Assembly (NCBI GenBank): GCA_030647775.1
Contig: JAUSJC010000010.1
Location: 200,718 to 264,717 of the forward strand
DNA: 64,000 bases
From: Candidatus Curtissbacteria bacterium
GTDB taxonomy: Bacteria > Patescibacteriota > Microgenomatia > Curtissbacterales > GWA2-41-24
Direction of reading: 5' to 3'
A program made the position numbers and the translations under genes. Of this stretch, positions 1-63,729 are shown piece by piece. The notes below the pieces were generated by a model, which made no database searches, was not told the DNA's origin, and saw only the letters and a list, made by a program, of their open reading frames with translations. The stretch's first letter is position 1. Each line of letters opens with the position of its first letter.

Positions 1-145
1 GGCGCGAGATTCGGCAGTAAAATGGCAAAAACAGCCACAAATGTTAAAACTTTTTTCCAAAAAATAGTACCCATAGAATTAGCAAAAAGCCATCAAAATG
101 GCCTCATATTGTACCAAAAAACATATCAGAAAGCAAACCTATAGG

Positions 146-2013: not shown

Positions 2014-3534
2014 ATGCTAGCCAAAGTTACCTCCGCAGCTGTTGTTGGTTTAGATGCCGTTCCTATTACCGTTGAGGTCGATATTGCTTCCCAGGGGTTA
2101 CCAAGTTTTACCATAGTCGGTCTTCCCGATAAAGCCGTTGAAGAATCAAAGGAAAGAGTTAGGGCCGCGCTTAAAAACAGCGGTGCCGATATCCCCCCAA
2201 AAAGGATAACGGTCAATCTTGCCCCGGCAGACTTACCAAAAGAAGGCCCCGCCTATGATCTTCCAATCGCCCTCGGTATTCTAATAGCCAGTGAACAATT
2301 AAAAGCGGATGTCGAAGACTCAATTTTTATTGGCGAACTTTCTCTTGACGGGTCACTGCGCCGAATTTGGGGCGTTTTGCCCTGTACCCTTATGGCCCGC
2401 GACAAAAATTTTAGTAATATTTTCCTTCCTCCGGATAATACTGGAGAAGCCGGGGCTGTCGATAAAATCAGCATTATTGCCCCAAAAAACTTACGCCAGC
2501 TTTTTGATCATTTTGCCACAGACACCAAGATTCCACCTCTAAAATTTAAAAAACAAATCTTTAAAAATATTATTGACGAAGACTTTGATTTTGAAAATAT
2601 TTTAGGGCAGGAAAATGCCAAACGCGCCCTAACTATTGCCGCCGCCGGCGGTCACAACATTTTAATGAAAGGTCCACCCGGAGCCGGCAAAACTCTTATG
2701 GCCAGAAGCTTCACGACTATCCTGCCCAGGTTAACTTTTGATGAAAGCCTTGAGGTGACAAAAATTTATTCTGTTGCCAACCTCTTAAATGCCGAAACCC
2801 CCCAAGTCCTGTCACGTCCGATTCGTAGCCCTCACCATACCACAAGCCATATTGGCTTAATCGGCGGCGGTAATATCCCGCGCCCCGGAGAAATTTCGCT
2901 TGCCCACCGTGGAGTTTTGTTTTTAGACGAATTGCCGGAATTCCCAAGACAAGTCCTCGAAGCCTTAAGACAGCCGATGGAAGATGGGCATATTACCATT
3001 TCCCGTGCCGCCGGGTCTGTCAAATTTCCCTGCCGTTTTACTCTGGTTGCCGCCGCCAACCCCTGTCCTTGCGGCTTTTTTGGTGACGAAACTAGAAATT
3101 GTGTTTGTGCTCCAAGCGCCATCACCCGTTATCAAAAAAGGATCTCCGGTCCAATCTTGGACAGAATCGATATCCATATCACGGTCCCGGCAGTCAAAGT
3201 GGAAAAGCTGACAGGGCAAACAAGGGGAGAGTCAAGCGCAAAGATTCAGGCCCGTGTCCAAAAAGCCCGCGCCCTTCAAGAAAAAAGATTTAAGAATCTG
3301 GCTATTGCCTCAAATGCTGAAATGTCGGCAAAACTGATGAAAAAATATTGTAATCTCGACGATCAGTCAATTCTGCTTTTGAAACAGGCTATTTCCAAAC
3401 TCAATCTTTCCGCCCGTTCATTTCATAGAGTCATTAAAATTGCCCGGACCATCGCCGACCTTGAAGCGTCAATCAAAATAAAATCCAATCATGTTGCAGA
3501 AGCGCTTCAATATCGTCCTGCTGCTGATATTTAA
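2014..3534 (+). CDS. YifB/ComM family Mg-chelatase-like AAA+ ATPase
   Basis: Lon-like N-terminal domain (LPSFTIVGLPDKAVEESKERV), Walker A GPPGAGKT, ChlI-like C-terminal half. The 3' end is duplicated around a repeat element (see findings). Confidence 0.85.
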   Translation: MLAKVTSAAVVGLDAVPITVEVDIASQGLPSFTIVGLPDKAVEESKERVRAALKNSGADIPPKRITVNLAPADLPKEGPAYDLPIALGILIASEQLKADVEDSIFIGELSLDGSLRRIWGVLPCTLMARDKNFSNIFLPPDNTGEAGAVDKISIIAPKNLRQLFDHFATDTKIPPLKFKKQIFKNIIDEDFDFENILGQENAKRALTIAAAGGHNILMKGPPGAGKTLMARSFTTILPRLTFDESLEVTKIYSVANLLNAETPQVLSRPIRSPHHTTSHIGLIGGGNIPRPGEISLAHRGVLFLDELPEFPRQVLEALRQPMEDGHITISRAAGSVKFPCRFTLVAAANPCPCGFFGDETRNCVCAPSAITRYQKRISGPILDRIDIHITVPAVKVEKLTGQTRGESSAKIQARVQKARALQEKRFKNLAIASNAEMSAKLMKKYCNLDDQSILLLKQAISKLNLSARSFHRVIKIARTIADLEASIKIKSNHVAEALQYRPAADI

Positions 3535-16246: not shown

Positions 16247-17569
16247 ATGTCTAAAGTCATAGATCCCAAGCGCAGTCGAGTCATCGAGACCCTGAGTTTA
16301 TCGAAGGGTCGAAGGACCACAGGTCCTGAGCGCAGTCGAAGGATTCGCGTTCGATACGCCCCTTCGCCTACAGGCATTCCGCACATCGGTAATATAAGAA
16401 CCGCCCTTTTCAATTACCTATTTGCAAAAAACCAAAATGGCGATTTTCTACTGCGCATCGAAGATACCGATCAAAACCGGTTAATACCCGAATCCGTCGA
16501 AAAAATCAAAGAAAGCCTCGAGCTCCTGGGCCTAAAGTGGGATGAAGAGGAACACCAATCAAAACGGTTGGAAATCTACAAAAAGCATTTGGACATTCTT
16601 AAGGGAAAAGATTTGGCATATGAAGATGACGGTGCCTGGCGTTTTAAAGTTGAAAAGGGCAAAACACTGCAGTGGGATGATGTCGTTCATGGACAGGTTA
16701 AATTTTCATCAGACGTTATCGAAGACTTCATCATCATAAAATCCGACGGATTTCCCACTTATCACTTTGCTTCTGTTGTAGACGATCACGATATGCAGAT
16801 TTCCCACGTTTTCCGCGGCGATGAATGGATTTCTTCAACACCAAAACACCTACTAATATACCAGGCGTTTGGATGGGAACCGCCAAAGTTTGTCCACTTG
16901 CCGCCAATTCTCGGGGCTGACCATAAAAAACTTTCCAAGCGCGAAGGCGCCAAATCGGTAATTGAATACATAGAAGAAGGATATCTTCCGGAGGCGATTG
17001 TTAACTTTTTAGCATTTCTGGGTTGGTCACCCAAAGATGATAGAGAAATTTTCAGTCTTGAGGAGCTCACTCGCGAATTTTCCCTCGACCGCATCAACAA
17101 AAACAGCCCAATTTTTAATTTGGAAAAATTAAATTGGTTCAATAGTCAGTGGCTCCGAAGACTTCCACAAAAAGAATTATCCAAAAAAATCAAAAAAGCT
17201 TTTCCAAGATATGATCCAAAAATTGTCGGGAAACTCACCCCCCTTATCCAGAAAAGGATTACAAATGTTAACGATTTTCCAAAACTTTGCAATTTCTTTT
17301 TTGAAGTGCCAAAACCTTTAGATTCGGTTGTCGAAAAAGGTGTTCTGTCAAAAGTAGCCGAGAATTTTGTTAAAGTTTCGTGGAATGCGGAAGAAATTAA
17401 AAATTCGATAGAAGATTTTGCCCAAAGTCAAAAAGTCGACAAGAAAGATTTAATAGTCAGCATAAGAAATATTGTGGCAGGCAGACCTGTTACGCCCCCG
17501 CTTTACGAGTCGTTAGAAATATTAGGTAAAGATGAAACTATTGCAAGGCTCAAAAAATATGTCAGCTAG
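16247..17569 (+). CDS. gltX: glutamyl-tRNA synthetase (or non-discriminating GluRS) with an N-terminal extension built from repeat elements
   Basis: HIGN motif (PTGIPHIGNIRTALF) and KMSKS motif (KLSKR). The first roughly 35 aa (MSKVIDPKRSRVIETLSLSKGRRTTGPERSRRIRV) are encoded by two family A elements at 16268-16345. Confidence 0.85.
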   Translation: MSKVIDPKRSRVIETLSLSKGRRTTGPERSRRIRVRYAPSPTGIPHIGNIRTALFNYLFAKNQNGDFLLRIEDTDQNRLIPESVEKIKESLELLGLKWDEEEHQSKRLEIYKKHLDILKGKDLAYEDDGAWRFKVEKGKTLQWDDVVHGQVKFSSDVIEDFIIIKSDGFPTYHFASVVDDHDMQISHVFRGDEWISSTPKHLLIYQAFGWEPPKFVHLPPILGADHKKLSKREGAKSVIEYIEEGYLPEAIVNFLAFLGWSPKDDREIFSLEELTREFSLDRINKNSPIFNLEKLNWFNSQWLRRLPQKELSKKIKKAFPRYDPKIVGKLTPLIQKRITNVNDFPKLCNFFFEVPKPLDSVVEKGVLSKVAENFVKVSWNAEEIKNSIEDFAQSQKVDKKDLIVSIRNIVAGRPVTPPLYESLEILGKDETIARLKKYVS

Positions 17570-19872: not shown

Positions 19873-20006
19873 AGAACAATTATATAAGCACGAATAGAAA
19901 ATTTGTTAATACCAAAATCTTCCGTTGGCACTGGTTTATCCTTCGTACTCGAAGGGTTGACTATGCTGGAACGTTCTATTTGAGTATCTAAGGCTGTTCT
20001 TTGAAT

Positions 20007-20636
20007 TTATGCAAGAGATTTAATCAGTTCAGGTAATTTCTCGAATTGTGAAGTAATTGCATCTACGTTTTTATACTGACTTTGTGAAAAAATAATCACC
20101 TTCATGCCTGCAGCTTTCCCTGCAACAATGTCGTTTTCGACGTCGCCAATATAAACTGCTTCTCTGGGACTTATATTTAGCTTTTGACATGCCAGAAGAA
20201 GCGGTTCTGGATGAGGTTTATGGTTAATAGTGTCTTGATAGGAGATTGTAACCTTAAAATACTTTTGTAATTTTGCAAGGGCAGGAGCTTCGTAAACACT
20301 TTCTTTAATCCGACTTGTAACAATCCCAAGAGAATATATTTTGCTTAAAGTTTCGATGACTTCCCCTGCCTTTTCAGGCATAGTCAACAATTCAAGATGA
20401 TATTTTATTTTACGACTTCGTCCTGTTTCCCATATTTGTTTAATTTCTTCATCTGAGGTGGATTTTGTAAGAGTTTTGATTGCGTCCATCATGCTCAAAT
20501 GAAAAATCGGGGGAAATTCTTCTCTTGTTGGTGGTCGATAACCAACTTTCGTCATTAAATCTTGAAAGAATTTTAAGTTTGCCTCAAATGAATTAAGTAA
20601 AACGCCATCAATATCAAAAACTACCGCTTTTATCAC
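20007..20636 (-). CDS. HAD superfamily hydrolase (beta-phosphoglucomutase-like)
   Basis: DxDGVL motif (VVFDIDGVLLNS) and C-terminal GDxxxD (IGDVENDI). Confidence 0.75.
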   Translation of the reverse strand: MIKAVVFDIDGVLLNSFEANLKFFQDLMTKVGYRPPTREEFPPIFHLSMMDAIKTLTKSTSDEEIKQIWETGRSRKIKYHLELLTMPEKAGEVIETLSKIYSLGIVTSRIKESVYEAPALAKLQKYFKVTISYQDTINHKPHPEPLLLACQKLNISPREAVYIGDVENDIVAGKAAGMKVIIFSQSQYKNVDAITSQFEKLPELIKSLA

Positions 20637-20672
20637 AACGTTATTATAGCAGAGTTTGAAGCTAAATGAGGG

Positions 20673-20743
20673 CTGCGGGACTAGGATTCGAACCTAGATA
20701 AACGGATCCAGAATCCGTTGTCCTACCATTAGACGATCCCGCA
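20673..20743 (-). tRNA. tRNA-Gln (anticodon CUG)
   Basis: Minus-strand cloverleaf: U1:A72 acceptor TGCGGGA/TCCCGCA, D-arm GTCTAATGGTAGGAC, anticodon arm ACGGA-TTCTGGA-TCCGT, T-arm CTAGG-TTCGAAT-CCTAG. No encoded CCA. Confidence 0.75.
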
Positions 20744-20746
20744 AAG

Positions 20747-21013
20747 CTACCTACTTAATTGCTTTAAACTATTTTCAATCTTTCCTTTTAAGACTTCTCT
20801 CCCGTAACCAGATTTGTAAAACTTTTCTTGTTTAAGTGCGTCCTCTTCAGTTAAAAATGCTTCATAAAATACAAGTTTATACGGCCTATTATCTCTAGTA
20901 TATTTGCCTCCAATTCCGTCGTTATGCTCTCTAAACCTGCGCCTTAAATCATTTGTTGATCCTGTATATAATCTTTTATTCTTCAGACTTAATAAAACAT
21001 AAACGTAATACAT
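20747..21013 (-). CDS. small GIY-YIG nuclease-domain protein (COG2827-like)
   Basis: MYYVYVLLSLKNKRLYTGSTNDLRRRFREHN... Start taken at the Met of MYYVYVL. A partial tRNA-Gln 5' half lies immediately upstream. Confidence 0.65.
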   Translation of the reverse strand: MYYVYVLLSLKNKRLYTGSTNDLRRRFREHNDGIGGKYTRDNRPYKLVFYEAFLTEEDALKQEKFYKSGYGREVLKGKIENSLKQLSR

Positions 21014-21083
21014 AAAAGTCCGTTGTCCCTGCCTCATCGGCAGGTCGCCGAAGAGGCGACTACCATTAGACGATCCCGCAAAG
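21014..21083 (-). repeat. partial copy of tRNA-Gln (positions -3 to 31) interrupted by two small hairpins; abuts the GIY-YIG gene start
   Basis: Minus strand reads CTTTGCGGGATCGTCTAATGGTA, then the hairpin GTCGCCTCTTCGGCGAC, then the hairpin CTGCCGATGAGGCAG, then GGACAACGGAC, then TTTT-ATG. Confidence 0.6.
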
Positions 21084-21320
21084 TTAAATCCTTCTTTTCA
21101 AATATGCTCTACCAAAACCTGTTTTTAATTGTTTTTCTCTTCATATAGCTTTTTCCTTAGACAAACACGCTTCGTAGTAAATCAAAATTAATGGAACTCT
21201 ATTTTTTGTTGAGACAACTAGTTCTTGATTGTGAGCTTTTACTCTTTTTTCTAGATTGTCAGTCCAACCTGTGTATAAATTTCCATCCGTTTTGCTTTTT
21301 AACACATAGGTAAAGTACAT
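21084..21320 (-). pseudogene. second GIY-YIG nuclease-domain gene carrying an in-frame TGA (at 21141-21143) in a conserved position
   Basis: MYFTYVLKSKTDGNLYTGWTDNLEKRVKAHN...EACLSKEKAI*REKQLKTGFGRAYLKRRI aligns with paralogue 1 through the stop. The start ATG follows the D-arm-like GTCTAATGGT. Confidence 0.5.
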
Positions 21321-21335
21321 ACCATTAGACCTGCC

Positions 21336-21400
21336 CGCAATGCTACGCTCGCCAGAAACGCTGTATCTACTGCGAGCTGGCATAGCGTTGCAGGCGGGCG
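21336..21400. repeat. family D element (CCTGCCCGCAATGCTACGC ... ATAGCGTTGCAGGCGGG) with a 33 bp internal insertion
   Basis: Compact copies lie at 40369-40404 inside copA and inside the tRNA-like element at 50062-50105. Confidence 0.5.
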
Positions 21401-21488
21401 ACTCCGCATCGCATTAAGATTTTAGCATTTTTAGCCTGCTTTGGATAATTTTGTTAAATTTCTTGAACTTGCTATAGTAGAAGTGTAA

Positions 21489-22055
21489 ATGGCCGGTTCA
21501 AGAGCAGAATTCGTCAAACAAATTCCCGAAACTAAACTTTCCCGCCTGCTTTTTGCGGACACCCGCCTGGCAGTCATTTGGCTTATTATCAGGGTTTATG
21601 TTGGCTGGCAATGGTTTTTTGCCGGTTATGAAAAAGTTATCAGTCCTGCTTGGACAGGGGATAAAACCGGAATGGCGCTCAAAGGTTTTCTTGCCGGGGC
21701 CATTTCCAAGGCTTCCGGTCCGCATCCCGATGTCCAGGATTGGTACGCAGCCTTCTTAAACGGTTTTGTGCTCCAGCACACGACACTTTTTTCCTATATG
21801 GTCGCCTACGGTGAACTTTTAGTTGGTATTGCTCTTATTCTTGGAGTTTTTACGGGAGTGGCGGCCTTTTTTGGAGCTTTTATGAATATGAACTACCTCC
21901 TTGCCGGTACCGTTAGCACAAATCCTATTTTGTTATTGCTCGAAATCCCAATTATTATCGGTTGGCGGGTTGCCGGCTGGTTTGGGCTGGATCGTTTCAT
22001 TTTGTCAAAATTTGGAGTTCCCTGGCACCCCGGACCATTTTTCAGGAAAAAGTAG
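21489..22055 (+). CDS. DoxX family membrane protein
   Basis: 4-TM protein with VYVGWQWFFAGYEKV near the N-terminus. Confidence 0.55.
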   Translation: MAGSRAEFVKQIPETKLSRLLFADTRLAVIWLIIRVYVGWQWFFAGYEKVISPAWTGDKTGMALKGFLAGAISKASGPHPDVQDWYAAFLNGFVLQHTTLFSYMVAYGELLVGIALILGVFTGVAAFFGAFMNMNYLLAGTVSTNPILLLLEIPIIIGWRVAGWFGLDRFILSKFGVPWHPGPFFRKK

Positions 22056-22392: not shown

Positions 22393-22989
22393 AACCCGCT
22401 CCTCCGTCACTACAAAATCCATTTTTAGATCATGGTTTTCTCTCGGGATCACATCGACTATTTGCAGCTCATATGCCAGTCCAACGCGAACCGCCTTGCT
22501 TTTTGCAAATAGCGTGTCAAACACTCCCTTACCGTATCCCAGTCTCACACCATTCTTATCAAAAGCCACACCGGGGAAAAATGCCAAATCGATTTTACCC
22601 GTGTCGATCATCCCGCCGCTCTTTGGCTCGAGTATTCCCAGCGGTCCTTCTTTTAGATCGCCCCAGCCGCGAAACCGCGCTAATTGATATTCATCAGTCT
22701 CTTTTAAATACTTGGGAAGATAAACCTCCACACCAGCTTCGACAAAAAAATTGATAATATCGTGAGTTTCCACCTCGTTTTTTATTGGTAAATAGAGAGA
22801 AACTCTGTTTCCGGTAGAAAAAATACTGCTCCCAATGATTTTTTTGGTGATTGCTAAGCTTTTCGCGCGAACCTTGCTCGCTGAAAGCTCTACCCTTTGG
22901 GCAATTATCTGTTTTCTAACCCCATTTTTATTTCGAGTAATCGAGAAATAAGCTCTCTTATCCATAAGCCCATTATACATTAGCTTCAA
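22345..22989 (-). CDS. 5-formyltetrahydrofolate cyclo-ligase
   Basis: GYGKGVFD and VGLAYELQIVDVIP motifs. The start may be an internal Met. Confidence 0.7.
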   Translation of the reverse strand: MKLMYNGLMDKRAYFSITRNKNGVRKQIIAQRVELSASKVRAKSLAITKKIIGSSIFSTGNRVSLYLPIKNEVETHDIINFFVEAGVEVYLPKYLKETDEYQLARFRGWGDLKEGPLGILEPKSGGMIDTGKIDLAFFPGVAFDKNGVRLGYGKGVFDTLFAKSKAVRVGLAYELQIVDVIPRENHDLKMDFVVTEERVLDFIDLGSKNEVVNG

Positions 22990-25877: not shown

Positions 25878-28835
25878 ATGAAACAAAGAAAATTCGATAT
25901 TGATAAAGTTGACACCAGAAGCGCAGTCCGCGCCAAGGTTAGGAAAATTGGCCGCCAAATCCCCAAAGCGCCTAAAGACTTATCTGAACCCGCCCTTTCC
26001 GAAAACGCCGCCTATATCGCCAAAACCCGCTACGCTTTTAGAAACGAAAAGGGCGAACCCATCGAATCTCCAAAAGACATGTTCTGGCGGATTGCCTACT
26101 ACATAGGTGCAGCCGATGAAATCTACCTGCCTCGCGGCAAGGCGGGCCACGGCAAGAAGACCCACGAAAAATCGTCCCGCGAATTTTACGAAATAATGGC
26201 AACCCAAAAGTTTATCCCCAACACGCCGACTTTAGTTAATTCCGGCAAAACCGGTCAGTCGCTTTCGGCCTGCTTCGTTCTTCCGGTTGAAGACAACCTC
26301 GAAAGCATTCTAAAAACCATGCACGATATGGCCATGATCCACAAGATGGGCGGCGGTACCGGTTTTTCTTTTTCCCACCTGCGCCCCAAAGACGATGTTA
26401 TCGGGACTTCCAAGGGTAAGACCACCGGCCCGGTAGCCTTCTTGCAGGCTTATAACGACGTTACTTCCCAAATCCGTCAGGGCGGCGTCAGGCGCGGTGC
26501 CAATATGGGGATTCTCCATTACACCCATCCGGATATCCTGCGCTTTGCCGTCCACAAAGTCGACGAATTTTCCCTAACCAACTTCAATATTTCCGTCACT
26601 GTTACCGAAAATTTCATGAAAAAGGTTAAGGAAGATGAAAAGTATGTAACCCAGGAAGCCGATTTCGACCCGGTTATCGAAGAAATTAAAGAAGCCTACA
26701 CCATCCGCGACTTGGATCTCAAAACCGTCAGGATTGAAGAAGGCGTTATCAAACTTTACGATATTTGCCGCTCCAAAACCCAAGGCGAAGGTTACGACCT
26801 TATAAATCCAAAAACGGGTAAAGTTACAGACCGGTTAAACGCCAAGAAATTCTTCGACCTTATCACCAAACTTGCCTGGCAGTATGGCGACCCGGGCATG
26901 ATCCTGATCGACAGGATTAACAGTTCCCGCGCCAACCCGGTTCCCAATATCGGCCCGATCGAAGCAACCAACCCCTGCGCCGAACAGCCCCTGCACGCCT
27001 ACGACGCCTGCACTTTAGGCTCCATCAACCTTGCCAAGTTTGTCGTAGATGCTGACGAAGGAAGCATCGCAGACCCTGAGCGCAGTCGAAGGGTCGTAGA
27101 CGATAAATCAATCGACTGGCAGGAAATGGGAAATGTGATCGCGACTGCCGTCCATTTTCTCGATAACGTCTTGGATATGAATGAATATCCTGTTCCCGAG
27201 ATCGACAAGATGACATCCGCTATTAGGAGAATCGGCCTTGGGGTTATGGGTTGGGCCGATATGCTTGTCAAACTTGGAATCGGCTACGATACCCGGGAAG
27301 CTTTCGACTTGGCCGAGAAAGTTATGAAATTTGTGCAGCGGGAAGCCGACAGTGCCAGCGTGGATCTTGCCAAAACCCGCGGCGTCTTTCCGGCTTTCAA
27401 AGGTTCCATTTACGACAAACCAGCCACTGGCCCTGAGCGAAGTCGAAGGGGCCAGATTCGTCCCCGAAACGGCGCCAGAACCACCATTGCCCCAACCGGC
27501 ACCATTTCCCTTCTTGCCGATTGTTCTTCCGGCATCGAACCGCATTTTGCCTTAACCTATGCCAAAAACACCATCGAAGGTAAACGCCTTTTTAACACCA
27601 ACTCTTATTTTAAAGAAGCGTTGGACGCCCGCGGGTTAGATTCCGAAGACCTGCTTGCCAAGATTAGCGAAAATAAGGGTTCCATCCAAAACATGGACGA
27701 AATCCCCGAGGGCCTGAAAAAAACCTTTGTAGTCGCCGGTGATATCGCTCCGAAAGATCACGTCCAAGTGGCCGCCGCTTTCCAAAAGTTTACCGACAAC
27801 GGCATTTCCAAAACAATCAACTTCTCCAACGAGGCAACTGTCGAGGATGTGCGCGAAGCTTACTGGTTAAGTTACGAACTTGGCTGCAATATGATCACTA
27901 TTTACCGCGACGGTTCGCGCGTCAAGCAGGTTTTGGAAGTCAAAAAAGGTAAATCCTATTACGACCAGCTTACCGGTAAAAGAACAGAGGCAGAAGCCAG
28001 CCAGGAGCCGGCGCTTCCTATAAAGCGCCGCACACCGCAGGAGGCTTGGGGCATGCGCGTTCGTAAAAAAGCCGATGTCGGTCAAGTCTATACTTCCGTT
28101 TTTCGTGATGTTGATGGTGCCCCGATTGAAGTTTTTGTCACCATCGGCAAAACCGGCGGCTATGTTGCCGGCGCGGCCGAAGTTACCGGGCGTCTGGCTT
28201 CGCGCGCCTTAAAATACGGCGCCACCTTGGAAGAAGTTGCCTCCGATCTTATCGGTATTGCCTGCGGCACTCCCTACGGTTTTGGTACTGAAAGCGTCCT
28301 TTCCGCCTTTGACGCTATCGGCAAATCCTTAATCGAAATTTCCAAGGCCAAACAGCTTCAGCTACCGATGGACAGTCAAGCACAGGCGCAAAACTCGGAA
28401 GTTACCACCCTTTCAATTTCGAATCCTACAAACGGTAACGGCCCGCTTCGCCCGCTCAGCGAGGCGAGCCATACCAACGCCAATGGCAACTCCAACGGAC
28501 ACACCCGCCCGACAACGCCTTCGACGTTAGTCGATGGCGGGCGGGCCAACGGTAATGGTCATACAAACGGTCCGCTTCGCCCGCTCAGCGAGGCGAGCCA
28601 TACCAACGGTAGTAATGGGGTGCAGACAACCCTAAGCAGCCTGGTTGGTACTCCCGTTCCCCAGGTCGAAATCAAGCAGGGGAATAACGGTCTGGTTATT
28701 GCCGCTTTGCACGATGAAGAAAAAGCCCTGGAAACCAAATTCACTTCCTGCCCGGACTGCGGATCACCGCTTGTCTACGCCGAAGGCTGCCGCAAATGCG
28801 TCAACGTCACCTGCGGCTGGAGTAAATGTAGTTAA
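25878..28835 (+). CDS. nrdJ: class II (adenosylcobalamin-dependent) ribonucleotide reductase NrdJ with a C-terminal zinc ribbon
   Basis: NPCAEQ active-site region. C-terminal CPDCGSPLVYAEGCRKCVNVTCGW. Two in-frame family A inserts (ADPERSRRVVDD at 27072-27095; TGPERSRRGQIR at 27429-27453). A low-complexity tandem repeat (GPLRPLSEASHTN) lies at 28441-28609. Confidence 0.85.
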   Translation: MKQRKFDIDKVDTRSAVRAKVRKIGRQIPKAPKDLSEPALSENAAYIAKTRYAFRNEKGEPIESPKDMFWRIAYYIGAADEIYLPRGKAGHGKKTHEKSSREFYEIMATQKFIPNTPTLVNSGKTGQSLSACFVLPVEDNLESILKTMHDMAMIHKMGGGTGFSFSHLRPKDDVIGTSKGKTTGPVAFLQAYNDVTSQIRQGGVRRGANMGILHYTHPDILRFAVHKVDEFSLTNFNISVTVTENFMKKVKEDEKYVTQEADFDPVIEEIKEAYTIRDLDLKTVRIEEGVIKLYDICRSKTQGEGYDLINPKTGKVTDRLNAKKFFDLITKLAWQYGDPGMILIDRINSSRANPVPNIGPIEATNPCAEQPLHAYDACTLGSINLAKFVVDADEGSIADPERSRRVVDDKSIDWQEMGNVIATAVHFLDNVLDMNEYPVPEIDKMTSAIRRIGLGVMGWADMLVKLGIGYDTREAFDLAEKVMKFVQREADSASVDLAKTRGVFPAFKGSIYDKPATGPERSRRGQIRPRNGARTTIAPTGTISLLADCSSGIEPHFALTYAKNTIEGKRLFNTNSYFKEALDARGLDSEDLLAKISENKGSIQNMDEIPEGLKKTFVVAGDIAPKDHVQVAAAFQKFTDNGISKTINFSNEATVEDVREAYWLSYELGCNMITIYRDGSRVKQVLEVKKGKSYYDQLTGKRTEAEASQEPALPIKRRTPQEAWGMRVRKKADVGQVYTSVFRDVDGAPIEVFVTIGKTGGYVAGAAEVTGRLASRALKYGATLEEVASDLIGIACGTPYGFGTESVLSAFDAIGKSLIEISKAKQLQLPMDSQAQAQNSEVTTLSISNPTNGNGPLRPLSEASHTNANGNSNGHTRPTTPSTLVDGGRANGNGHTNGPLRPLSEASHTNGSNGVQTTLSSLVGTPVPQVEIKQGNNGLVIAALHDEEKALETKFTSCPDCGSPLVYAEGCRKCVNVTCGWSKCS
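28441..28609 (+). repeat. coding tandem repeat inside nrdJ (two roughly 40 nt copies of CCGCTTCGCCCGCTCAGCGAGGCGAGCCATACCAACG) in an N/G-rich linker
   Basis: Copies lie at 28441-28480 and 28571-28609. Confidence 0.6.
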
Positions 28836-31713: not shown

Positions 31714-32370
31714 ATGTCTGCCAAAAGTCGAGTTATCGAGACCCTGAGCCTATCGAAGGGGGGATTTGCCCAACCCGCAGTAGTTCTTATCCTGCTCGGC
31801 ATTTTTGCCGCAGCTTTTTTTAACTTCAAAAATATCACAAAATGGGTTGCCTCTTTGGCGCCGCCGCCCCCCGTCTATCAAAACACCATCCCCCAGTGGC
31901 AAGTTTATAAAAACCAGACTCATGAATTCTCCATTGAATATCCCAACGGTTGGTTTGTTAGAAGTTACGGTGATTACGCCGCCAATTTCCAAACGACCGA
32001 CCTAAAACTGGGCGAAGCGACCCCTGGTGCAATTAGGGTTAAATTTGCGGCTCTTAAAGAAAACGTGGATCAAGCCGAATTTGAAAAGATTTATAAAATC
32101 GGCGTGGGCGTTGATATTTATGAGCCCCTTGATGTCAAATCAATAATCGCCAAAGTCAAAAACCTGATGTTTGGTCAATACAGGGGAGTGGAATATGTCG
32201 TTAACCGCAGCTTTTCCGCCCTCGAAGGCCCCCGCGGCCAGTTTACCCATTTTTACTCGGTTAATAAAAATGGGGTAATCCTACAGTTTTTCTCGGCAGC
32301 CGATACAAAAGATGCCCATCAGAAATCCGACGCGATTTTCCGGAAGATGATTGCCACGCTTAGGTTTTAG
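31714..32370 (+). CDS. hypothetical membrane-anchored protein; its N-terminus is encoded by a family A element
   Basis: MSAKSRVIETLSLSKGG, then a TM helix. The N-terminal leader is shared with gltX. Confidence 0.5.
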   Translation: MSAKSRVIETLSLSKGGFAQPAVVLILLGIFAAAFFNFKNITKWVASLAPPPPVYQNTIPQWQVYKNQTHEFSIEYPNGWFVRSYGDYAANFQTTDLKLGEATPGAIRVKFAALKENVDQAEFEKIYKIGVGVDIYEPLDVKSIIAKVKNLMFGQYRGVEYVVNRSFSALEGPRGQFTHFYSVNKNGVILQFFSAADTKDAHQKSDAIFRKMIATLRF

Positions 32371-50036: not shown

Positions 50037-50044
50037 ATTGTTTT

Positions 50045-50138
50045 GGCTCCTACATGGATGACCTGCCCGCCATAGCTTGCGCATCAGGCGCTAGCAGGCG
50101 GGGAACGCTAGGTCCTAGGCCACTAGACGATGGAGCCA
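50045..50138 (-). other. tRNA-like pseudo-element: canonical acceptor and D-arm, then a family D palindromic block in place of a normal anticodon/T region
   Basis: Minus strand: GGCTCCATCGTCTAGTGGCCTAGGACCTAGCGTTCC, then [CCGCCTGCTAGCGCCTGATGCGCAAGCTATGGCGGGCAGG], then TCATCCATGTAGGAGCCA. The ends pair as an acceptor stem; no canonical T-arm. Confidence 0.4.
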
Positions 50139-50259
50139 AAGCCGTGCTGATTATAACTGAACCTAAATAACATAACAATATTATTGACTGGCAATTTGCA
50201 AAGATTTATGATAATATCTCTGTTCGCGTAGAGCGGTATAATCATTTTATGGCAAAAAT

Positions 50260-63033: not shown

Positions 63034-63729
63034 ATGTCTTTCTTGCCCCGAAAAGGTTTTAGTCACTTAGTCATCTTAATTCTTGTCGCGATTTTAGGTA
63101 CAGTCTTCTTTCTAAGCCCAATAAAAAAATACCTATATATGGCATATCAAAATGCCGGTATGGCTGTCGGCATCAATCTAAATAATATTGCTACCGCAAG
63201 CTATGTCAATTTCATCAAATCCCAAAGCGGCCAGTATGAAAACGCCAGTACCGCAATTTGGCTAAACCAAAAAATCGCTTACAATAATTTCTTGGCCGAA
63301 GGCCCTGAGCGAAGTCGAAGGGCCGACGCGAACGTTTTGGGTAATCAATCTCCCGCTGATCCCAATAAATGGATTGATATTAATTTATCTGAACAAAGAC
63401 TTTATATGAAGCAAGGTGCCAGCACCGTTGCTAGTTTTTTAGTTTCTACCGGTAAATGGGCGCCGACCCCGACAGGCACTTTTGCCATCTGGACAAAGTT
63501 AAGATATACCACAATGGCAGGTGGAAACCAGGCGCTCGGTACTTACTATAACCTTCCAAATGTCCCCTACGTAATGTACTTTTACCAGGGTTATGGAATG
63601 CACGGGGCTTATTGGCATAACAACTTTGGCCAGCGCATGAGTCACGGCTGTGTCAACATGAGGCCGGAAGAAGCCGGCATTGTCTTCAACTGGGCAGATG
63701 TCGGCACCCGCGTAGTTGTCCACGATTAA
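63034..63729 (+). CDS. L,D-transpeptidase (YkuD family)
   Basis: GYGMHGAYWHNNFGQRMSHGCVNM catalytic region. In-frame family A insert AEGPERSRRADA at 63301-63323. Confidence 0.75.
   Translation: MSFLPRKGFSHLVILILVAILGTVFFLSPIKKYLYMAYQNAGMAVGINLNNIATASYVNFIKSQSGQYENASTAIWLNQKIAYNNFLAEGPERSRRADANVLGNQSPADPNKWIDINLSEQRLYMKQGASTVASFLVSTGKWAPTPTGTFAIWTKLRYTTMAGGNQALGTYYNLPNVPYVMYFYQGYGMHGAYWHNNFGQRMSHGCVNMRPEEAGIVFNWADVGTRVVVHD

Follow-up and report, generated by a model that had tools for sequence, protein, structure and literature searches.

Two GIY-YIG genes stacked upstream of tRNA-Gln

The 64,000-nt stretch of Candidatus Curtissbacteria DNA analysed here (contig JAUSJC010000010.1, positions 200,718 to 264,717; hereafter the window) carries on its minus strand an array of small nuclease genes and tRNA pieces that ends in an intact tRNA-Gln(CUG) gene. 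Read from 21412 to 20671, the array consists of a 5′ remnant of a tRNA gene, a 66-nt GC-rich hairpin, a first GIY-YIG open reading frame (ORF; gene 2), a copy of the tRNA 5′ part (leader 1), a double hairpin, a copy of tRNA positions 22–32, a second GIY-YIG ORF (gene 1) and the tRNA-Gln(CUG) itself (Table 1). The stop codon of gene 1 (TAG) is followed by three nucleotides, ctt, and then directly by the tRNA. Each element listed in a preliminary description of this DNA, and the order of the elements on the minus strand, was recovered by sequence comparison, ARAGORN, Rfam, Pfam and a repeat finder.

The two genes are paralogous, as the preliminary description had it: both are assigned to the Pfam GIY-YIG family (71 bits for gene 1 and 56 bits for gene 2, with a cut-off of 22.6), and their products are 42% identical. 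Gene 2 had also been read as a decaying copy, and the in-frame TGA at its codon 60 (21143–21141) indeed lies opposite Lys61 of gene 1, ahead of the conserved Glu, with the alignment resuming past the stop. A reading of this TGA as a sense codon was set aside, as neighbouring genes read normally under table 11 and the organism belongs to the Curtissbacteria, which are not known to be among the lineages of the Candidate Phyla Radiation (CPR) that recode TGA. The two paralogues are of different subfamilies, gene 2 grouping with the ‘second' ORFs of related loci L011, L072, L033 and L046. Its start codon overlaps the copied D loop, as had been noticed: GTCTAATGGT is fused to the ATG, and the 11-mer of the D-arm copy occurs three times exactly in the window, against 0.5 chance matches in window shuffles with one mismatch allowed.

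Some details had to be corrected. The gene 1 ATG lies 5 nt after the equivalent of tRNA position 31 (that is, 4 nt after position 32) rather than 4 nt, and the leader segment measures 66 nt rather than 70 nt. The sequence TTGCGGGCAG at the 3′ end of the 66-nt hairpin bears a mere resemblance to an acceptor strand; the true older 5′ remnant has the core ATGCGGAGTCG (aTGCGGAGTCG) and lies at 21409–21399, upstream of that hairpin. This remnant sits where the tRNA starts in the empty allele of a related locus, and its gcgATGCGGAGTCG also begins the intact tRNA-Gln genes of related loci L205 and L204. The proposal that the leaders are copies of the neighbouring tRNA holds for leader 1 of the window and fails for the outermost remnant, as it does for the leader of related locus L001, both of which derive from another resident allele with the acceptor strand TGCGGAG. 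The downstream tRNA copy GGACAACGGAC corresponds to positions 22–31 of the window tRNA and to positions 22–32 of the tRNA allele found in L001 and L203, which is identical to the window tRNA at 67 of 72 positions.

Table 1. Features of the tRNA-Gln array in the window.
Feature	Position	Strand	Basis
Extended −10-like box TGCTAAAAT, 10 nt upstream of the remnant	21419..21427	−	Comparison with Curtissbacteria relatives
Block present in the window and missing at the orthologous L203 locus, 663 nt	20750..21412	−	BLASTN collinearity
Older resident tRNA-Gln 5′ remnant, GGAG type, gcgaTGCGGAGTCG	21399..21412	−	Alignment with L203 and L001
GC-rich hairpin (‘family D'), 66 nt, after position 10 of the old tRNA copy	21333..21398	−	Fold −45.5 kcal/mol, z=−2.5
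D-arm copy GTCTAATGGTA, tRNA positions 10–20; last base overlaps the gene 2 ATG (GGT-ATG)	21320..21330	−	Sequence, repeat finder
GIY-YIG gene 2, pseudogene	21084..21320	−	Pfam E=5e-15; BLASTP 42% identity to gene 1
Leader 1 cttTGCGGGATCGTCTAATGGTA, tRNA-Gln −3..21, exact 23/23	21061..21083	−	Repeat finder, repeat family D1
Double-hairpin module, 32 nt, at D-loop 21/22 of the upstream tRNA copy	21029..21060	−	Conserved, covarying
tRNA 22–32 copy GGACAACGGAC (21028–21018) and TTTT spacer before the gene 1 ATG	21014..21028	−	Sequence
GIY-YIG gene 1, 88 aa, intact	20747..21013	−	Pfam PF01541 E=1e-19
tRNA-Gln(CUG), intact, acceptor TGCGGGA/TCCCGCA, CCA not encoded	20671..20743	−	ARAGORN 20670–20744; Rfam 20673–20743, 64.7 bits

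The gene 1 protein

The gene 1 product is identical to a protein encoded on a 527-kb contig of Candidatus Curtissbacteria (Microgenomates, CPR), and hundreds of relatives 60–80% identical to it are spread across CPR lineages. A profile search at E≤1e-3 returned 19,622 representatives of clusters defined at 50% identity, nearly all of them single-domain proteins of 85–130 aa; no NCBIfam model covers the gene 1 family. Sequence matches in the protein data bank comprise the UPF0213 protein BH0048 (1zg2, E=2e-10), 1ywl (E=4e-8) and SLX1 (E=1e-3), with EF2693 among the nearest solved relatives. The AlphaFold2 model (pLDDT 94.7) shows a GIY-YIG α/β fold in which a three-stranded sheet is flanked by helices, with the succession of secondary structures E-E-H-H-E-H-H-H. 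A Foldseek search with this model retrieved BH0048, Slx1, the catalytic domain of I-TevI and the N-terminal domain of UvrC; the similarity with the Slx1 nuclease domain (TM-score 0.65–0.69, r.m.s.d. of about 2 Å, 28–36% identity) ranks ahead of that with the I-TevI and UvrC domains. Gene 1 is thus, as modelled, a minimal stand-alone GIY-YIG domain of the Slx1/UPF0213 type.

Across 30 family members, residues Y16, G18, R26, H30 and E63 are invariant, and Y3 and Y5 nearly so. We take the conserved Tyr, Tyr-x-Gly, Arg and Glu residues to have the catalytic roles assigned to them in published work on UvrC and I-TevI. Gene 1 and its L001 orthologue are separated by 16 synonymous and 5 non-synonymous codon changes, and at this level of comparison the gene is shown to be under purifying selection. 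The protein consists of the 88-aa catalytic domain by itself, without the DNA-binding domain present in I-TevI and the Seg enzymes. Its similarity to homing families is weak: the TIGR01453 score, 22 bits, falls short of the cut-off of 56, and matches to homing endonucleases in PHROG have an E of about 1e-4.

Other affiliations were considered and rejected. A role as a defence system finds no match in PADLOC, where the gene 1 protein hits no defence family at E≤0.01. A phage origin is disfavoured by the weakness of the PHROG matches and by the absence of gene 1 relatives from 2.9 million viral contigs.

A conserved double hairpin in the D loop

The two small hairpins between leader 1 and gene 1 had been described as perfect, which they are (GTCGCC-tcttc-GGCGAC and CTGCC-gatga-GGCAG at 21060–21029); they are not, however, incidental, but belong to a conserved and covarying module of the family. 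The 32-nt consensus of this module reads GTCGCC-TCWTC-GGCGAC followed by CCGCC-GAWGA-GGCGG, and it is followed in turn by the 3′ strand of a D stem that matches the tRNA type of the locus concerned. In an alignment of 32 leaders, 97.9% of the cells are paired and seven pairs show compensatory changes, a result reached by none of 500 shuffles. The D stem around the module is also kept (93% of cells paired). A single long hairpin in place of the two, which the minimum-free-energy fold prefers, was rejected: it is 88.9% paired, a value equalled in 182 of 500 shuffles. G-U pairs are nearly absent from the hairpins (1 of 352 cells), which suggests a constraint acting on DNA rather than on RNA. Apart from the tRNA, an Rfam search of 20500–21600 at E≤1 found no intron, no HEARO or omega RNA and no other family, and known RNA families were accordingly discarded as an identity for the leaders or the hairpins.

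Within the window, the module motif occurs at 21029–21060 and nowhere else. Across 366 kb of related loci, 49 modules were counted, 34 of them no more than 130 nt ahead of a GIY-YIG start; most of the others are echoes on the opposite strand or belong to partial tRNA copies within the same arrays. Subfamilies other than that of gene 1 carry the module after position 10, 12, 15 or 18 of the tRNA copy, or in the anticodon loop. By its sequence and position, the 66-nt hairpin upstream of gene 2 is a module of this kind, belonging to a gene 2-type cassette; the module of locus L158 has the same position and is of the same ‘cccgcc...ggcggg' type.

The window holds other GC-rich elements. At 50040–50150 (minus strand), a tRNA-Glu-like pseudogene (GGCTCCATCGTCTAGTGGCCTAGGACCTAGCGTT ... 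GGAGCC), which neither ARAGORN nor Rfam calls, lies 8 nt upstream of an intact tRNA-Glu(CUC) gene and contains no ORF; its middle is a GC hairpin (50075–50116) of the ‘cccgcctgc...gcgggcagg' type, as at 21333–21398. Further GC-rich repeat families occupy 16274–16342, 27061–27449, 31726–31760 and 63290–63321 (for example ...CCCTGAGCGAAGTCGAAGG), and a 43-nt repeat is present at 28437–28608 in two copies that are 98% identical and 129 nt apart.

Empty and occupied loci in relatives

Related Curtissbacteria-like loci (L202–L205) were recovered using the neighbouring pterin dehydratase gene as an anchor. The comparison of this site among relatives that the preliminary description had suggested yields empty (L203, L205, L202 and L204), one-cassette (L001) and two-cassette (window) loci: four of the six are empty, two are occupied, and three different states are seen overall. 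Positions 22488–21413 of the window align with 2994–1928 of L203 at 81% identity over 1077 nt (BLASTN), and the next block, window 20749–20672, begins at the same L203 base (1928–1851), where a bare tRNA-Gln is found. Presence and absence are thus polymorphic at a defined site, both between L203 and the window and between L205 and L001. The window differs from L203 on the other side of the tRNA as well, where greA follows the tRNA directly in L203 and a 750-nt insertion with a gene for a HAD-family hydrolase separates tRNA-Gln from greA in the window (19922–20671); both sides of the window tRNA-Gln are therefore variable.

Locus L001 contains an orthologue of gene 1 (94% identical) with its module and tRNA, and lacks both gene 2 and the 66-nt hairpin; gene 2 is likewise missing from L203. 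L001 is not orthologous to the window locus. Its upstream flank matches that of L205, where an intact tRNA-Gln of the other allele (acceptor TGCGGAG) begins at the same point, so that L205 represents the empty form of the L001 locus. The leader of L001 consists of the first 21 nt of the resident, L205-type tRNA, followed by the module, whereas its intact downstream tRNA is identical to the L205 tRNA at only 49 of 72 positions and to the L203 tRNA at all 72. As the leader is of the resident type and the downstream tRNA is foreign, the incoming DNA would have brought a whole replacement tRNA. The foreign tRNA is accompanied by about 55 nt of L203-like 3′ flank beside the resident-type 5′ remnant, an arrangement that may reflect co-conversion; a resident 3′ tRNA remnant was looked for in L001 and not found. 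Despite the different genomic contexts, the gene 1 block (module, ORF and tRNA) is 91.7% identical between the window and L001 over 410 nt. The 56-nt leader core shows no change and the module is identical, whereas the ORFs differ by 8.6%. Taken together, these sequence comparisons show mobility of the units.

L001 carries a further tRNA piece at 1010–1150, after the intact tRNA-Gln. This is a partial copy of the tRNA 3′ part, starting at about position 47, whose T loop is split by a 95-nt hairpin-rich insert, and beyond it lies a flank with homology to the one on the 3′ side of the window tRNA.

In the window, L001, L203, L204, L205 and L202, the tRNA or leader is preceded by a TGnTAAAAT box, 8–18 nt before its start. 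The box of the window is probably the promoter of the tRNA, now driving the whole array. A generic sigma-70 scan reported no minus-strand promoter and did not detect this box. A conserved sigma-70 promoter in front of all leaders was rejected, as it lacks support beyond the Curtissbacteria relatives (5 of 44 loci).

Distribution at tRNA genes of CPR bacteria

The phenomenon is wider than the preliminary description, confined to one locus, could have indicated, and spans CPR bacteria and at least eight tRNA species. A scan of 80 genome loci encoding gene 1 relatives gave 97 ORF hits, and for 61 of these (at 60 of the 80 loci) a tRNA gene on the same strand begins right at the end of the GIY-YIG match. 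Forty-six of the adjoining tRNAs are tRNA-Gln (CUG or UUG), the rest being Gly, Pro, Ser, Val, Glu, Lys and Ile. At 43 of the 60 loci, the 160 nt before the ATG include a mostly perfect copy of the 5′ part of the locus's own tRNA. The same search with the tRNA 3′ half gives 0 of 60, and with a distal region 2 of 60, both in tandem units. Together with the window shuffles, these family-wide controls rule out a chance origin of the tRNA-like stretches, in agreement with what had been claimed for the window. Acceptor stems vary among the loci, and each leader fits its own tRNA. The perfect copy usually stops at 21/22 (GGTAG|) and in most loci has its 5′ limit between +1 and −6; after the module, the tRNA copy continues to a variable endpoint, at position 26–47, before the ORF. 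The preliminary description had proposed serial insertion of a GIY-YIG unit at the anticodon-stem position of tRNA-Gln. Serial insertion is borne out by the different states of the window and its relatives, but the anticodon-stem junction is not: the junction that recurs falls in the D loop, at 21/22 or, in the gene 2 type, at position 10, and is marked by the module.

The stop codon of the ORF usually lies between 23 nt inside and 56 nt upstream of the tRNA. Where it lies inside (L006, L007, L011, L016, L017, L035, L038 and others), it is the TAA of GTCTAATGG at tRNA positions 13–15 or a TAG at positions 8–10, so that an RNase P cut at the tRNA 5′ end would leave an mRNA without a stop codon. 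In two Roizmanbacteria loci (L021 and L024), the GIY-YIG frame continues across the tRNA, meeting no stop codon for about 185 nt, and a leader copy was not found on its upstream side.

Occupancy is rare. In a wider sample of 98 tRNA-Gln genes with the same D arm, drawn from metagenomes and not restricted to CPR bacteria, only five carry a GIY-YIG gene, and these five share the architecture; the gene is therefore not a fixed feature of tRNA-Gln. Perfect tandem duplications are found in L044, where a whole leader-ORF unit of 382 nt is repeated before tRNA-Glu, and in L078, where the repeated unit precedes the 5′ part of a Ser/Leu-like tRNA, and their perfection points to very recent events. Pieces of a former upstream unit are retained in L004 and L051. 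L011, L018 and the window contain stacked cassettes of different subfamilies, in which the upstream ORF ends within the next leader. The window array is polarized: next to the tRNA, the leader is perfect and the ORF intact; in the outer cassette, the remnant has diverged and the ORF stops prematurely. This polarity fits a sequence of events in which new insertions enter the intact tRNA and older ones are displaced upstream.

Variants of the design involve other loops and the other end of the tRNA. Mirror-image cassettes have the ORF after the tRNA, followed by a copy of the tRNA 3′ end (L042 at 2888–3145, L076 and L077), and members of a clade about 50% identical to gene 1 lie behind tRNAs after two AT-rich hairpins (L067, L069, L072, L074 and L080). 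In L066, half of a hairpin unrelated to tRNA occurs as a direct repeat on the two sides of the ORF. In L008, L009, L012, L053 and L056, the intact tRNA is followed, at a distance of 0–330 nt, by partial tRNA-Gln copies whose D, anticodon and T loops hold between one and three hairpin modules. With L084, L122, L008, L053, L001 and L066 taken together, insertions or modules are found in anticodon loops, in T loops and in the loop of a non-tRNA hairpin. These varied positions indicate that the insertion points are loops of hairpin-forming DNA rather than one sequence.

Probable homing-type cassettes and rival explanations

We consider it probable that these arrays are homing-type mobile ORF cassettes living in the tRNA genes of CPR bacteria, and that the window holds a stack of two. 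A cassette would comprise an upstream GC-rich hairpin module, a short tRNA piece and a gene for an Slx1/UPF0213-type GIY-YIG protein of about 80–90 aa, with a replacement tRNA sequence fused to the 3′ end of the gene (at least the 5′ part, and the whole tRNA in L001). Its point of entry would be a tRNA-gene loop, in most cases the D loop at 21/22; upstream, the 5′ part of the resident tRNA would remain with its promoter as a ‘leader', and the cassette would be transcribed from the tRNA promoter. As a complete tRNA is rebuilt directly downstream, the host would lose nothing. The window would have received a gene 2 cassette at position 10 of a resident tRNA-Gln with the acceptor TGCGGAG, and later a gene 1 cassette at 21/22 of the restored tRNA, which shifted gene 2 upstream to decay. 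The nuclease would make the initiating break, its predicted target lying at tRNA-gene loops, chiefly at 21/22 of the D loop, and spread would follow from recombinational repair with co-conversion. What the nuclease recognizes is most likely not a long sequence but a structure, a hairpin or cruciform formed by tRNA-gene DNA, given its lack of a DNA-binding domain, its structural kinship with Slx1, the nearest relative in fold, and insertions that are directed to loops. The module would act at the level of DNA, either as an end or as an element of recognition or of immunity. The variation of the insertion points among D, anticodon and T loops and among eight tRNA species, together with the bare domain, argues for behaviour that is homing-like, but not of the I-TevI or Seg type.

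Several observations weigh against this reading. Cleavage by the gene 1 protein, and the target of that cleavage, are predictions, and an 88-aa domain without a DNA-binding module is atypical of a site-specific homing enzyme. The restored tRNA keeps the presumed target, so that an occupied allele would not be immune, which is consistent with the tandem arrays but would burden the host. That leader and tRNA are perfectly identical in most loci requires frequent turnover or selection on the leader. Gain and loss cannot be rooted among the window, L001 and L203; recombination between the paired tRNA 5′ copies could turn a window-like state into L001; and the flanks are mosaic, so that ordinary hot-spot recombination may explain some states. 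That the target changed more than once, from Gln to Gly, Pro, Glu, Ser and Ile, is suggested by a rough neighbour-joining tree of about 88 residues that carries no support values, and is no more than a hint. The lack of relatives on viral contigs, noted above, also weighs against the reading.

In one rival explanation, the hairpin modules are the true mobile agents, resembling miniature inverted-repeat transposable elements, REPINs or mitochondrial double hairpins, with tRNA-Gln as a hot spot of recombination or slippage, the ORF as a passenger or independent resident, and the copies arising by unequal crossing-over with no cut by the nuclease. Modules without an ORF do nest and multiply in all three loops of the partial tRNA copies that follow intact tRNAs, and a hairpin-interrupted pseudo-tRNA without an ORF precedes tRNA-Glu in the window. 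The module is a quasi-inverted doublet of the REPIN kind, as its long form shows, and fungal mitochondria are known to contain both mobile double-hairpin elements and GC palindromes beside tRNA genes (PMC2800124). Against this, most modules sit just upstream of a GIY-YIG start, with most others being echoes or parts of the same arrays; the motif is found nowhere else in the 64 kb of the window; the ORF is under purifying selection with its core residues kept; and relatives differ by units that bear the ORF. On balance we think this explanation unlikely. It is quite unlikely that gene 1 is instead a conserved host gene co-transcribed with tRNA-Gln, the leader being a cis-regulatory or processing element (for example by mimicking a tRNA so as to titrate a tRNA-binding factor, by pairing with the tRNA 3′ strand or by stabilizing the mRNA 5′ end). 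Strict co-orientation, tight or overlapping junctions with the tRNA, leader acceptor strands that track their own tRNA across lineages, conserved and covarying hairpins and the promoter-like box upstream of the leader in Curtissbacteria relatives would all be expected of such a gene. A host gene should not, however, be missing from four of six related Curtissbacteria loci and from all but 5 of 98 tRNA-Gln genes with the same D arm, nor adjoin eight different tRNA species or occur in perfect tandem duplications and as pseudogenes; the module position in the leader also varies from 10 to 33, and the near-absence of G-U pairs is a better fit to a constraint on DNA than on RNA.

The remaining explanations give the leader or the tRNA pieces a function as RNA. 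The leader has an anatomy reminiscent of IscB and its omega RNA: a tRNA-identical segment of about 21 nt followed by scaffold hairpins, which as a guide RNA could steer the nuclease to tRNA genes. A perfect match of 21–24 nt to the target, ending at a structured module just upstream of a nuclease gene and tracking the tRNA of its own locus, is found in most loci, and the protein has no sequence-recognition domain. Yet the would-be guide has no fixed length (10–33 nt), the tRNA copy resumes after the module, the hairpins are almost free of G-U pairs, the target is also present in cis in the restored tRNA, and an 88-aa protein offers little surface for an RNA scaffold. The OMEGA nucleases IscB and TnpB are moreover RuvC or HNH enzymes rather than GIY-YIG, no HEARO or omega RNA was matched in Rfam, and the literature searched yielded no RNA-guided GIY-YIG enzyme; we judge a guide function very improbable. 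Hardly credible is the idea that the interrupted pieces are functional split or intron-bearing tRNAs, from which the modules are removed or whose halves are joined, possibly by the GIY-YIG protein acting on RNA. The modules do lie in loops, up to three per copy, like the non-canonical introns of archaeal tRNAs, and the D stem is kept around them. But a complete, uninterrupted tRNA lies beside the pieces at every locus examined, the pieces themselves are truncated, with one acceptor strand missing, neither a known splicing motif nor an Rfam family is matched, and GIY-YIG enzymes are DNA nucleases. A group I intron-encoded endonuclease was rejected as well, given the lack of an intron match, non-coding parts of only about 70 nt and the uninterrupted tRNA downstream.

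Homing-type cassettes, if confirmed, would give a role to a large branch of uncharacterized UPF0213/YhbQ-type GIY-YIG proteins, that of the 19,622 clusters counted above, and would show that CPR genomes of about 1 Mb harbour active selfish cassettes of about 340 nt that use tRNA genes as safe, strongly transcribed landing sites. They raise the mechanistic question of how a bare catalytic domain chooses its target, whether by structure-specific cutting at gene-encoded hairpins, aided by the double hairpin, or otherwise. For annotation, they would account for several features seen near tRNA genes in metagenome-assembled genomes, namely partial ‘ghost' tRNA fragments, mini-ORFs in tandem and GC hairpins, and they warn that tRNA alleles can be laterally replaced together with cassettes. 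The engineering of nucleases, for which the catalytic domain of I-TevI has served as a building block, would gain a further candidate in a minimal nuclease whose target is defined. A bolder proposition, which we hold to be doubtful, is that the 88-aa Slx1-like nuclease and the 32-nt double hairpin define a large undescribed class of minimal selfish elements that are targeted by DNA structure; in its radical form, the tRNA-derived leader RNA helps to guide the enzyme. Were it true, many tRNA genes, and perhaps rRNA stem-loops, would be colonized with the gene always rebuilt, and these would be the smallest homing-type elements known, with a new, structure-directed choice of target.

Comparison with known systems

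A close parallel in organization is provided by the mobile ORFs (mORFs) of fungal mitochondria (atp6 of Allomyces macrogynus; atp6, atp9, cox2 and nad3 of Glomus), in which an endonuclease ORF is accompanied by a foreign copy of the gene part that it displaces (PMC3630166). The host gene stays functional, its functional part being foreign and its native part persisting nearby as a remnant that matches close relatives (PMC3630166). The logic is the same in L001 compared with L205, and the ORF is likewise free-standing and, in Glomus atp9, of the GIY-YIG type. The present cassettes differ in their CPR host, their tRNA target, the replacement of the 5′ part or the whole gene instead of the 3′ end, the bare 88-aa domain and the double hairpin at the junction. 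Paquin et al. are said to have described in 2000 that double-hairpin elements accompany mORF-type elements in Allomyces mitochondrial DNA. Repetitive hairpin elements and GC palindromes also occur beside tRNA genes in mitochondria (PMC2800124).

Among GIY-YIG nucleases, SegB of phages T4 and T6 is encoded in a tRNA gene cluster and cuts in tRNA genes (PMC13096335). By way of a short homology shared by the 3′ end of its gene and the tRNA 5′ end, it causes units of tRNA plus segB to be amplified in tandem, and a truncation of 28 C-terminal residues has been described (PMC13096335). The nuclease gene lies amid tRNA genes in both systems, and the SegB units compare with the tandem units of L044, L078 and the window. 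SegB is, however, a longer phage protein that carries a DNA-binding region, and its gene is neither nested in a duplicated tRNA part nor associated with a hairpin module. In sequence and fold, the gene 1 protein, which has a single domain, is closest to the structure-specific GIY-YIG nucleases represented by Slx1 and the bacterial UPF0213/YhbQ family. Slx1 cuts branched and stem-loop DNA, which fits a loop-directed choice of target; it differs in working with Slx4 in repair. No mobility of UPF0213 proteins and no link between them and tRNA genes was found in the literature searched.

The integrases of phages and of integrative and conjugative elements insert in a tRNA gene, restore it from a copy borne by the element and leave a partial direct repeat. 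Such tRNA-targeting elements use tyrosine or serine recombinases, duplicate the 3′ part and measure kilobases, whereas the cassettes described here have no recombinase, duplicate the 5′ part and form a unit of about 340 nt. In CPR bacteria, GIY-YIG ORFs have been reported in insertions of rRNA genes other than group I and group II introns, most rRNA insertions lying at the top or base of stem-loops (PMC11270868). The authors judged the GIY-YIG insertions to be sparse and probably not spread by homing, and the word ‘tRNA' does not occur in their article (PMC11270868). The host group and the non-intron GIY-YIG ORFs are shared with our cassettes, and the target, rRNA, is different. No description of the tRNA-nested arrangement, or of a role of UPF0213-type proteins in it, was found in the literature searched, whose coverage was incomplete, so that an earlier description is possible. 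The known kind to which these arrays would belong is the homing-type mobile ORF with replacement of a gene part, and what would be new is the host, the target, the minimal type of nuclease and the double hairpin.

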